Assembly (NCBI GenBank): GCA_048213135.1
Contig: PS015062.1
Coordinates: forward strand, 60,651-80,650
Direction: 5' to 3'
Origin: Reclinomonas americana ATCC 50394
Lineage: Eukaryota
Length of the DNA stretch: 20,000 bases
The position numbers and the translations under genes are program-made. The first letter of the stretch is position 1; every line of letters starts with the position of its first letter. The notes below the pieces were generated by a model, which saw only the letters and a program-made list of their open reading frames with translations, was not told where the DNA came from and ran no database searches. Positions 13-16,800 of the stretch are shown in pieces.

Positions 13-1279
13 GTTGGTGGTGGGCGGCTCGTATGTGGCACTGGAGTGTGGAGGGTTCTTGTCGGGTCTTGGTTTTGACACCACGGTCATGTATCGATCG
101 ATACCATTGCGTGGGTTTGATCAGGAGATGGCGTTCAAGATCGGTACGCTGGAGTTGCTCACACTTCGCTTCCGTGTGTTGTTGTTGTTGACTCGCAAAA
201 ATAGTGCACACAATGGAACACTTGCATCACACCAAGTTTATCGCGGGAGCGGTTCCGACGGCCATCGAGAAGCGAGAAGACGGACGTCTGCGAGTGCTCT
301 ACAAGCGGGGCGAGACTGTAGGCGAGGTTCGGCATTGATGACCACAGAAGCAGCTTTTTTGCTTGGAGTGATTGTGGCTGACACCACATCTCCACAGGAT
401 GTGTTTGACACGGTTCTGTTTGCGGTGGGTCGGCATCCGTCAACAGCAACACTCGGCCTCGATCGCGCCGGCGTAGTGGTGAATCCCCACACGGGACGCA
501 TACCGGTGAATGCCAACGACGAGACCTCGGCTGCGGGTGTCTTTGCGGTGGGAGACGTGGCGGAGGTGAGCGCTCTCGTGATTGGTCGCCGCTCTCGACG
601 GTCACAGTTGTGCCCACAGTCATGTGTTCACACAGGGGCGACCTGAACTCACACCAGTCGCCGTCATGGCCGGCAAGCTGCTCGCCCAGCGACTCTTTGG
701 CGGTCGTCAGAAGCTGATGAACTACGAAATGGTGCGATGACCATCTACTGCCGTCGTCGTCGCAGCGTGCCCTTTTCTGAGCCGTTTGTTTCTGTTCTAC
801 CCAGGTGCCGACCACGGTCTTCACGCCTCTCGAGTACGGATGCGTGGGCTTGCCGGAGGAGGTCGCACTGGAGAGGTACGGCCCCGATCGTGTGGAGGTG
901 TATCACATGCAGGCGTCGCCATACGAGCACGTGCTGGTGTACGAACGAGAGGAGTTTCCTGCATTTTGCAAGCTGGTGTGCGTTCGTTCCGACGATGGCA
1001 CATCTGAGCGGGTTGTCGGATTCCATGTACTGGCACCGCATGCTGGTGAGATAACGCAAGGATTCGCGATGGCCATGTCGTTGCGTCGCCCAGTTGTGCG
1101 TCTCTTCGTCCCTCTTGTGACTCTTCCTGACTCGCCGTCGCAGAATGGGCGCGACCAAGGAGGACTTTGACAATGCAGTCGGCATCCACCCCACCACCGC
1201 CGAGCTCTTCACCACCATGACCATCACGAAGCGGTCGGGACAGCCGCTGCCTAAAGGCGGCTGTCCGTCGTGCGCCTAG
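13..1279 (+). CDS. TXNRD: High-molecular-weight (animal/apicomplexan-type) thioredoxin reductase, 5'-partial. Exons 13-143, 205-326, 398-565, 636-731, 805-1079, 1144-1279.
   Basis: The spliced translation has [79 protein letters not shown] and VGIHPTTAE (His-Glu dyad). It ends in a C-terminal extension [18 protein letters not shown]. All five introns are GT-AG and keep the frame. Confidence 0.93.
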
Positions 1280-1503
1280 ATAGATGCCGTAGTGAAAACA
1301 CGCACCACGAGATCGCACACGGGTTAACCAATGATACGAAATCGTGTTTCACTCTATGCGAGCACAAGAAAGACACACACACCTAACCCACACACAACAC
1401 ACACACACACACACACGTAAATGCACAACACACACAGATGTATTCGTCGACATGCAAGCCGCGTTTTGATTCTCGCCGTTACCAGCAGGTGCCTAGGAGC
1501 AAA

Positions 1504-13800: not shown

Positions 13801-16800
13801 CACTATCCTCTCCGACATGACGCAGACATCGGTCGCGTGTACGATTGGTGGGCCGGGCTTAACACCTGGTGCCTATGCCGTTTGCATTGCATACACTGTT
13901 ACCCCGAGCACATACGTGCTGGTGACCAGCACAACACTTGACATACGTGCGTCTGCCCCCGTTGATGAACCGTCTCTCCCCTTGCCGACTCGCGAGCACT
14001 CACATCAAATCGCTGTGCAGCACGGGTCGACACATTTGCCCCGTTGACCATGCCGTCTAGTGATGCCACTGTGCCGATCACCATTAACGGTATTCTGCTG
14101 CTGGCGTCCTTTGACGTTCGAGTGGAGCAGCAGACGACGTGCACGCCAACGGGAGCCGGTGCGGTCGGGTTCGTTCACAGTCTGGCGGCTAATGCGCCGC
14201 GTACGTCGATTATTTTCGACCTCGGTGTCGAGACGTTCCCAGCCGGCGCATACAGCGTCTGTGTTCGCTTTGCTCCGTATCTGACCTACCTCAAGGTCGG
14301 CAGCGCGCAGCTGGCTGTCGGTTCGTTGACCTCCTGGTGTCGTGTTTGAAAACGTCTCTCTTTGGTTCTCGTGCCGTTCTCATGTGCGTTGGATTATGTC
14401 GCAGCCGGTGCGCAATCATTCTCCCCTCGCTTGGTGCGACCGTTGGATGCGACCTTCAGAATCACCATCACTGGACAATCGTTGTCCGCCGCGAACGGAG
14501 TGCGCATTCAGTCGGGCACGCTGTGCTCGGCCGGCGGCACTGTTGGTCAGACGGTGACCATTGATCAGATCGCAGGCGATGGATCGACGCTGAGTTTCCC
14601 CGTTGGCAGCGGGGGCCTGGCTGTCGGCACCTACAGTGTGTGCCTTCGTCTGGCCTCGGGCTTCGTGTACGGCAAGGTGTCACAGCAGAACATCTTTGTT
14701 CGTTGCGTAAGGATGGTGGTGGAGGCAAATGTCTCCGCGCGATCATGCTAACGGTCGTTCATCGCAGCGTCGGCCACTGCATTCTCTCCGCAATCCGTTC
14801 AACTCGGTCGTGCCGCCGCGAGTGTCACGGTGACTGGAACAGGGCTCGACCAACAGAATACGGTGTACTTTGAGCTGGCAGCTTCCTGCACGGCGAATGG
14901 AGGCGGCAATATGGCCATCACGCAGAGTGTGAACAGCGGGCGCACGCAGCTGACCGTCAATGTGGGCGGCACGGGCCTTGTTGCCGGCCGCTACATTGTG
15001 TGTGTGCGTTTCTCCACGGACTTTGTGTCGCAACTGGTGCCCNNNNNNNNNNNNNNNNNNNNNNNNNNNNNNNNNNNNNNNNNNNNNNNNNNNNNNNNNN
15101 NNNNNNNNNNNNNNNNNNNNNNNNNNNNNNNNNNNNNNNNNNNNNNNNNNNNNNNNNNNNNNNNNNNNNNNNNNNNNNNNNNNNNNNNNNNNNNNNNNNN
15201 NNNNNNNNNNNNNNNNNNNNNNNNNNNNNNNNNNNNNNNNNNNNNNNNNNNNNNNNNNNNNNNNNNNNNNNNNNNNNNNNNNNNNNNNNNNNNNNNNNNN
15301 NNNNNNNNNNNNNNNNNNNNNNNNNNNNNNNNNNNNNNNNNNNNNNNNNNNNNNNNNNNNNNNNNNNNNNNNNNNNNNNNNNNNNNNNNNNNNNNNNNNN
15401 NNNNNNNNNNNNNNNNNNNNNNNNNNNNNNNNNNNNNNNNNNNNNNNNNNNNNNNNNNNNNNNNNNNNNNNNNNNNNNNNNNNNNNNNNNNNNNNNNNNN
15501 NNNNNNNNNNNNNNNNNNNNNNNNNNNNNNNNNNNNNNNNNNNNNNNNNNNNNNNNNNNNNNNNNNNNNNNNNNNNNNNNNNNNNNNNNNNNNNNNNNNN
15601 NNNNNNNNNNNNNNNNNNNNNNNNNNNNNNNNNNNNNNNNNNNNNNNNNNNNNNNNNNNNNNNNNNNNNNNNNNNNNNNNNNNNNNNNNNNNNNNNNNNN
15701 NNNNNNNNNNNNNNNNNNNNNNNNNNNNNNNNNNAACTCGGAACTGTGTGCACTGCCTCTGGAGCCGGTACCCTGTTCACGACCTCGCAAGTCATGGGTC
15801 CCGACACCACACTGATCGCGGATGCTCGAGACACTGGCGGTCTAGTTCCTGGCTCCTACTCTGTGTGTGCTCGGCTGGGAACCACCTTTGAGTTTGTTCG
15901 AGTCGGGTCGGACTCGCTCCTCGTCGGTGGGTGATGTTGTCTTACACGCACACACATGTGCGTGTGCGCACTGGCTTTTGATTTCACATCTGTTCTCCAT
16001 GTCTCCCCTCTTTTTTTGCTTCTTGTGCAGCCTCTGTTGGTGCCTTCTCGCCCATCACGCTGGTGGTTGGCGCCGCCAGCGAAGCCGTGGCAATCACGGG
16101 CGTCGCTCTACACCCAACGATCAGTGTCCGCCGAGTTCGCTTCGAACCTGCCGCAGCGTGTACGACCTCTGAATCCATGGCCACGGCGGGGACAGTGATT
16201 GCTACCGGGCCGCAGGTGTCCAACGCCACTCTCTCCGAACTCACAGTTACTGTGGGCGGAACGGGTCTCCCACCTGCCAAGTACTCGGTGTGTGTAGACT
16301 TGGTGGCCAGTTCAGCCAGCGGCAACTACACTGCGTCTGCAGGCACACTGTACGAACGTGAGTATCCCACCCCACCAATGCTCATCGTCCGTCTCCGCTC
16401 CTGTCTCACTCTCTCTCCCCCCCCCCCCTCCCCAGCCGGCGTTACTGCTTTTTCACCGTCCAGTGTGCTCGCCGGCGATGGAACGGCAGTGATCACAGTG
16501 ACCGGCGTAGCCCTCGATCCGCTCATCTCGGTGCGCGCTGTTCGACTGGAACCGCTCGTGACCTCGTGTACGATGAATGCAACTGCACCTACAAATGGCA
16601 CGGTGACCGCCGTGGGCCCGTTCGCTAGCAACGCCAACAATACGGCTCTCACTGTCGTCCTCGGAGGAAGCGGCGCGCCGCCTGGCGAGTACCTGGTGTG
16701 CGTCGACTTTGTGGCCAATCCAGTCGATGGCGGATTCGTCTCTGCCGGCTCCGTGAAACTCCTCGTTGGTGCGTCTGCATGAGTTGTGCGGTGTTTGGAC

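Follow-up and report, generated by a model that had tools for sequence, protein, structure and literature searches.

The 20,000-nucleotide (nt) stretch of Reclinomonas americana ATCC 50394 considered here (contig PS015062.1, positions 60,651 to 80,650; "the window" below, with positions counted from its first letter) is eukaryotic DNA of 59% G+C with three runs of N, and it carries five genes, all of them intron-rich. On the + strand lie the 3' part of a gene for a high-molecular-weight thioredoxin reductase (TrxR; 1-1276, five donors), NOB1 (3178-5368, six donors) and a gene of tandem repeats, referred to as the repeat gene (10780 to the window end at 20000, 20 donors). On the - strand lie a coactosin-like ADF-H gene (3009-1507, five donors) and NRDE2 (about 10365-5432, 18 donors). 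The subject of this study is a class of 5' splice sites (donors) in these genes that begin with GTTGCG. Gene models were built manually from the sequence and checked against homologs, giving 54 donors and 53 complete introns of 58-306 nt (median 70 nt); all results refer to these five genes of one 20-kb window and to homologous proteins. A donor-agnostic dynamic-programming parse was dropped, as coding potential is too weak in this GC-rich DNA: no more than 32 introns came out, and many made no sense.

GTTGCG begins 12 of the 54 donors (22%), where 0.44 would be expected by chance (binomial P = 2e-14). As a word, GTTGCG is not enriched in the window, with 22 copies on both strands vs. 22.9 expected. 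An earlier account of the window, the sequence-only reading, had described an abundant GTTGCG(T or C) class made up of ten of about 54 donors, or close to one intron in five. That description holds, and the case for it is stronger than had been put: an independent reconstruction of the five genes also arrives at 54 donors, the coordinates of the ten are right, C or T precedes each of them, and none of the 39 donors that follow an exonic G begins with GTTGCG, as had been reported. Two further donors join the ten, at 8965 (- strand; A/GTTGCGC, the slash marking the exon-intron boundary) and 5784 (-; T/GTTGCGT). Very probably, the GTTGCG donor class is real in the window.

For eight of the 12 class donors the position follows from protein homology or from a conserved exon phase, the other four being placed on frame and signals, and removal of the intron restores frame and homology for eight of the 12 class introns. 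Junctions in TrxR were scored with a hidden Markov model (HMM) of 45 homologs and those in NRDE2 with an HMM of 54 full-length homologs, the candidates in both cases being all GT or GC donors and AG acceptors that lie in phase no more than 36 nt from a junction. The NRDE2 homologs were recovered by a HMMER scan, a word-index protein search with one exon having returned none. The TrxR intron at 1080..1143 (+; 64 nt, C/GTTGCGT) has the split codon between PF02852 positions 83 and 85, and its donor is the best in phase by at least 5.4 bits. Removal of the NOB1 intron at 4788..4849 (+; 62 nt, C/GTTGCGT) leaves a protein contiguous with human NOB1 6g18_y: the exon ends correspond to residues 273/274 and 276-278, the split codon to residue 275, and the Zn_ribbon_NOB1 match restarts at profile position 18 past the intron.

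Three class introns of the repeat gene, all C/GTTGCGT and all in phase 1, lie on the + strand. The first (11533..11621, 89 nt) separates homologous units of 327 and 330 nt, and its split codon is C/CA, for Pro, where most units have G/CN, for Ala. The others (13156..13229, 74 nt; 14702..14767, 66 nt) occupy the usual unit-boundary position. The exons that flank the three introns are 297-333 nt long, every length being a multiple of 3. Three class introns of NRDE2 (-) are placed by the HMM. For the intron at 8908..8965 (58 nt, A/GTTGCGC), which was absent from the earlier list, the donor scores 12.4 bits above T/GTGAGT at 8950 and at least 7.4 bits above all other in-phase donors, and the product aligns without gaps to the family consensus; use of 8950 would shrink the intron to 43 nt, when all the others are at least 58 nt long. 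Donors 8965 and 8950 are in phase, 15 nt apart, with products that differ by five residues (LRWYL), and both could be usable as alternative 5' splice sites. The donors of the introns at 6784..6850 (67 nt, C/GTTGCGC) and 6248..6330 (83 nt, T/GTTGCGT) are the best in phase by at least 5.5 and at least 3.3 bits, respectively.

The other four class donors are on the - strand. The first coactosin-like intron (2869..2939, 71 nt, T/GTTGCGT) is placed on frame and signals, and an HMM of coactosin homologs scores the alternatives for exons 1 and 2 within 3 bits of each other. The intron is followed by a probable 14-nt micro-exon, (Y)VLYE (2868-2855), and then by a 306-nt intron with many CA/GT repeats, the sole long one. 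The last coactosin-like intron (1897..1965, 69 nt, T/GTTGCGT) lies in a low-complexity tail and is placed on signals, with 1888 a possible alternative acceptor. The NRDE2 intron at 9793..9855 (63 nt, T/GTTGCGT) would cost only 3.3 bits if kept, and in-phase alternatives to its donor score within 0.6 bits. Because the introns at 9855 and 1965 are in frame and open, their removal is not forced by the frame. Removal of the last NRDE2 intron (5705..5784, 80 nt, T/GTTGCGT; also absent from the earlier list) is frame-forced, and alternatives to its donor score from -3.7 to +6.0 bits; 5784 was picked because every other sense-strand GTTGCGT heptamer is a donor. Thus, eight class donors are firmly placed, and 9855, 2939, 1965 and 5784 are probable sites placed less firmly.

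The heptamer GTTGCGT behaves as though it were sufficient to mark a donor. All 10 sense-strand copies in the window are donors, no copy falls within an exon or an intron in the sense direction, and a single copy is antisense, so that 10 of the 11 copies are on the sense strand (P = 0.012). The 12 class donors show no variation from +3 to +6, and +7 is T in ten and C in two. Among the 15 one-mismatch neighbours of GTTGCGT, only GTTGCGC serves as a donor, at two of its five sense copies.

These observations bear on the possibility that the class is an artefact, produced either by misplaced junctions (GC-donors 3 nt downstream, as GTT/GCGT, retained in-frame segments, or other donors) or by a local peculiarity of the five genes. 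Such a reading could draw on the fact that junctions are inferred from sequence and that an in-phase alternative lies 3 nt from each site, on the openness of the introns at 9855 and 1965, on the undecided homology evidence at 2939 and 5784, and on the homologous positions of the three repeat-gene introns. However, the GC-donor at +3 is 5.4 to 7.8 bits worse at 1080, 8965, 6850 and 6330, the four donors that homology can decide (6.4 bits worse at 6330), NOB1 is contiguous to the residue, the motif begins 12 donors rather than 0.44 in five unrelated genes on both strands, and the heptamer has the strand bias given above. An artefact is therefore very unlikely.

The base that precedes the class donors sets them apart from other donors. 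At -1, the class has C six times, T five times, A once and never G, whereas the other 42 donors have G 39 times, C twice and A once. The sequence-only reading had tied the class to donors that lack -1 G, and the data bear this out (G in 0 of 12 vs. 39 of 42; Fisher p = 1.3e-9); with the eight verified class donors alone, the contrast gives p = 3e-7. The same account had used the repeat gene as an internal control, which also stands: class donors occupy three of the five positions with C at the exon end and none of the 15 with G (p = 0.009). The stronger claim that the motif is used only after a pyrimidine does not survive, since donor 8965 follows A and the absence of G among 12 is close to the background composition of NGT (P = 0.053). 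A pyrimidine does stand at -1 in 11 of the 12 class donors, a modest departure from background (P = 0.016). These data show that the class is indifferent to the -1 base rather than demanding C or T. The true contrast is that ordinary donors need the -1 G and GTTGCGT does not.

The need for -1 G among ordinary donors is apparent from the use of matching sites. Ordinary donors have the form G/GT-N-N-G-(T), with G 23, A 11 and T 7 times at +3 and C 20, A 11 and T 9 times at +4. Sense-strand matches to G/GT[AG][ACT]GT are donors at 13 sites, vs. three exonic and three intronic decoys, whereas matches to H/GT[AG][ACT]GT are donors at three sites, vs. 31 exonic and 49 intronic decoys. The three ordinary donors without -1 G are A/GTACGT, C/GTGCGT and C/GTGAGT. 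Donors that begin with GTT after G (GTTTGT, GTTCGT and GTTGGC) make up seven of the 42 ordinary donors; G/GTTGGC is used as a donor in NRDE2 at 7853 (-), and C/GTTGGGTG at 3571 (+), in a NOB1 exon, is unused.

The sequence-only reading had described GTTGCGT as the common GTGCGT with one extra T. While this is formally so, the comparison does not carry over to the population of donors: GC occupies +3/+4 in nine of the 42 ordinary donors vs. +4/+5 in all 12 class donors. A plain shift of the consensus by one base would yield many GTT[AG][ACT]GT variants, yet none is found as a donor in the window. Compared with the ordinary consensus displaced by one position, the class tolerates far less variation.

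All 12 class introns are GT…AG introns. They are 58-89 nt long and match other introns in length, base composition and a CTNAY branch-like motif; nine of the 12 have a CTNAY or TTNAY motif at 8-24 nt from the 3' end, vs. 35 of the 40 other introns shorter than 120 nt. Mean identity of intron bodies is 0.47 between class introns, 0.44 between other introns and 0.46 between the two groups. The similar lengths, composition and branch motif, together with the lack of excess body identity, argue against both a U12-like second spliceosome and an introner family. We tentatively regard GTTGCG(T or C) as a genuine, self-sufficient class of 5' splice site used by the ordinary U2-type GT-AG spliceosome, a view that draws on these intron features.

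U12-type introns have the consensus /RTATCCTT at the 5' splice site and TCCTTRAC at the branch site. There are parallels between U12-type introns and the window class, since both are minority classes with a rigid 5' splice site independent of the exon-terminal base. The differences are that the window class has neither /RTATCCTT nor TCCTTRAC and shares the CTNAY motif, and its distance from the 3' end, with other introns. A U12-type reading was rejected on the GTTGCG 5' ends and on the lack of a class-wide U12 branch motif in the intron sequences.

An introner-type mobile family was likewise rejected, body identity being no higher in the class than in controls. A related proposal is that the introns are relics of one introner-type mobile element with a GTTGCGT 5' end, of which the donor alone has been kept. 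Ten introns do share identical first seven bases. However, intron bodies are no more alike within the class than outside it, the repeat units with the motif are only 29-48% identical to each other, and ordinary donors vary so much that a relic motif would have drifted unless the exact sequence were needed. A historical relic is thus highly improbable.

The textbook 5' end of U1 small nuclear RNA (snRNA), also written ACUUACCU, is the expected partner of a donor. Hybridization energies were computed with RNAduplex against this end in the form AUACUUACCUG, as printed in PMC4856993. Mean free energy (dG) with AUACUUACCUG is -0.2 kcal/mol for the class vs. -6.4 kcal/mol for other donors; the values for the 12 class donors range from +0.5 to -1.8 kcal/mol, and no register is stable. 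When the exon ends in a base other than G, GTTGCGT ranks 981 of the 1024 GTNNNNN heptamers with AUACUUACCUG, and GTTAAGT ranks about 200. The sequence-only reading had favoured a shifted or bulged register on ordinary U1, and the lack of any stable predicted duplex counts against that proposal.

Two kinds of non-canonical register invite comparison. Shifted-register mammalian 5' splice sites were reportedly described by Roca and Krainer in 2009. In mammals the shifted-register class is rare. It resembles the window class in being cut at GU with the helix one base downstream, so that +1 G replaces -1 G and the exon end is free. Unlike it, the window motif contains GC, is invariant, is unpaired with standard U1 and accounts for 12 of 54 donors. 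Freedom from -1 G, with +1 G at the C9 position, is found in the window (-1 G in 0 of 12 vs. 39 of 42); shifted pairing more stable than canonical pairing is not found with textbook U1, and would be expected only with a hypothetical altered U1 5' end. For comparison, a tested human shifted-register site, ACA/GUCAAGUAUA, forms a long contiguous helix with standard U1 (Table 2 of PMC4856993).

The second kind is the bulge +2/+3 register (Roca 2012, Tan 2016; PMC4856993), which GTTGCGT recalls in being GTGCGT plus a U at +2 or +3. In that register, C9 stays free to pair with -1 G, so that -1 G would remain helpful, yet it is present in none of the 12 class donors. A helix on both sides of the bulged U is not found either, as no bulged duplex is stable. 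A further comparison is with the NN//GURAG class, in which a weak exon side is offset by a strong intron side. The three ordinary donors without -1 G fit this description; GTTGCGT does not, since it has C rather than G at +5 and is one fixed heptamer, not a graded consensus.

Standard U1 might bind the class weakly in a shifted or bulged register, the main interpretation of the sequence-only reading, with commitment coming mainly from U1C or LUC7-type proteins, or later from U6 and U5. In favour of this model, shifted and bulged registers have been validated in human cells (PMC4856993, PMC9311317), and U5 loop 1 or the U6 ACAGA box is described as defining classes of 5' splice site (PMC11732430); the formal derivation of GTTGCGT from GTGCGT also speaks for it. 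Against it stand the pairing energies and rank reported above. Moreover, an ideal shifted site would be GTTAAGT-like and there is no such donor in the window, the invariant C at +5 would be left unpaired, and the bulge model expects a preference for -1 G that is absent. In humans, PMC4856993 counts just 68 predicted 5' splice sites for the bulge +2/+3 register, of which 54 remain after curation. We consider a standard-U1 mechanism unlikely. The same account had offered a variant U1 or U6 as an alternative, and this option has become the likelier of the two.

A one-base-shifted register on an snRNA partner with a non-textbook 5' end is our provisional explanation, one that we hold tentatively and in which both the shift and the partner are inferred. 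In this mechanism, +1 G of the intron would take the role that exonic -1 G plays in ordinary donors, such that G/GTGCGT (-1 to +6) and /GTTGCGT (+1 to +7), one base apart, would bind the same stretch of snRNA alike. The helix register would be shifted by one base relative to the cleavage site, and the cut would still fall before the sole GT. The shift would give up the central pair, and all remaining positions would then have to pair. The invariance of +3 to +6 would follow from the loss of the central pair, and the freedom of the -1 base (C, T or A) from the substitution of +1 G for -1 G.

Since the textbook U1 5' end does not allow this duplex, the 5' end of the partner would differ from ACUUACC at positions 5-6, and might be ACGCACC, with G-C instead of U-U. 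The G-C at positions 5-6 is suggested by the invariant GC at +4/+5 of the class and by G and C being the commonest bases at +3 and +4, respectively, of ordinary donors. A hypothetical 5' end of this kind, AUACGCACCUG, pairs with both classes of donor, at -6.5 and -8.8 kcal/mol.

An alternative to a single altered U1 is a two-U1 system, in which normal U1 is joined by a variant U1-like snRNA that is fully complementary to GUUGCGU (…ACGCAAC…) and serves the class only. The variant would act as U11 does for U12-type introns, but with normal U2-type branch and 3' signals. We know of no variant U1 that serves a fifth of all introns. A rigid, heptamer-long motif is what extended-pairing classes have, and a hypothetical AUACGCAACUG binds the class at -10.8 kcal/mol and ordinary donors at -5.4 kcal/mol. 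There is also precedent for more than one U1 5' end per genome, since variant U1 genes are expressed in humans (PMC3561869, PMC10870369). However, full complementarity would lead one to expect A or G opposite U10 at -1, rather than C or T, and a single altered U1 covers both classes of donor more economically. Both the dedicated variant and its U11-like role seem quite unlikely.

More broadly, the lineage might have altered a highly conserved RNA-RNA recognition, either through a diverged U1 5' end (for example, ACGCACC) or through two U1 species, one of them dedicated to GUUGCGU. In both cases, about a fifth of major-type introns would be defined without an exon-terminal G. This is possible, though doubtful.

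Several points weigh against a shifted register on an altered partner. Eukaryotes hardly vary in their U1 5' end, which makes an altered one a bold proposal. The thermodynamic search for a partner rewards G+C by construction, and AUACGCACCUG is accordingly a prediction only. The pyrimidine excess at -1 is left unexplained by a shifted register, and two copies of GTTGCGC, at 13301 (after C) and 17767 (after G), are exonic and apparently unspliced. Every junction comes from DNA and protein homology, homology leaves donors 9855, 2939, 1965 and 5784 undecided, the last of these having been chosen in part by its motif, and five genes of a single 20-kb stretch supply all the data. Finally, the three repeat-gene class introns may share ancestry: the tree of repeat units is a star, with none of its 15 inner branches supported. 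A search of the window for Rfam RNA families gave no matches.

To our knowledge, non-canonical U1 registers have been seen only as rare mammalian exceptions, and the way in which U1 pairs with the 5' splice site is regarded as close to universal. The window class is far commoner and more rigid than the register variants described in the literature cited here. A search of open-access full text (supplements excluded) for the motif in DNA and RNA spelling gave no description of it as a donor class or splice signal among the matches listed. If a rigid heptamer that fits no standard-U1 register does define about 20% of introns, then the register, or the snRNA itself, can evolve. The lineage would also provide a natural system in which to tell apart what U1, U5 and U6 each contribute to the choice of donor. 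It would explain, too, why gene finders that use a single donor matrix would mis-annotate many introns here, and in-phase decoys 3 nt and 15 nt away would keep such annotation errors silent.

Other features of the five genes were noted in passing. Proteins of the organism itself are absent from large protein collections, in which the closest match to TrxR is 69% identical. Animal high-molecular-weight TrxR enzymes end in Gly-Cys-Sec-Gly, whereas the C-terminus of the window enzyme (1240-1279, +) is a Cys-x-x-Cys tail. The coactosin-like protein has a long Pro/Ala-rich tail (1507-1896, -) with (PA)n, five EPEPVHA repeats and an acidic SDSDSEEEW terminus. Between NRDE2 and the repeat gene, adjoining microsatellites of (CA)n, (GA)n (about 100 nt) and (GAC)n occupy 10395-10560, up to an assembly gap, and the 5' ends of both genes may lie inside this gap.

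In the repeat gene, a unit of about 109 residues recurs in tandem at least 20 times, with one unit per exon and all introns in phase 1. The units are 26-54% identical. A Pfam search of the units found nothing above threshold; one unit matched TIG at E = 0.008, a weak likeness to IPT/TIG domains. The nearest Atlas clusters are unnamed eukaryotic proteins; those closest to one repeat unit give weak leads to Perkinsozoa and Euglenozoa.

In NRDE2, the best fragment match in large protein collections is 66% identical. The closest relative, P0121 (139 amino acids), has 62-66% identity and begins, at its N-terminus, at the exon boundary of the window exon at 9474. After …FARFQ it turns non-homologous (VRLLLL…), and it looks like a genomic open reading frame that reads into an intron which the window NRDE2 does not have at that position. 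Scans of metagenome contigs with P0121, and with an exact stretch of the window, returned no matches. Two NRDE2 junctions (-) depart from the usual form. At 9475-9541 there is a candidate GC-AG intron of 61 nt (G/GCATGC at 9535), which the HMM scores within 0.1 bit of a competing donor, T/GTCAAG at 9541. At 8417 the intron ends in AAG, not YAG, and the family consensus is matched residue for residue across the junction (…ALLQ/SMVELNCF…), with alternatives at least 10 bits worse.

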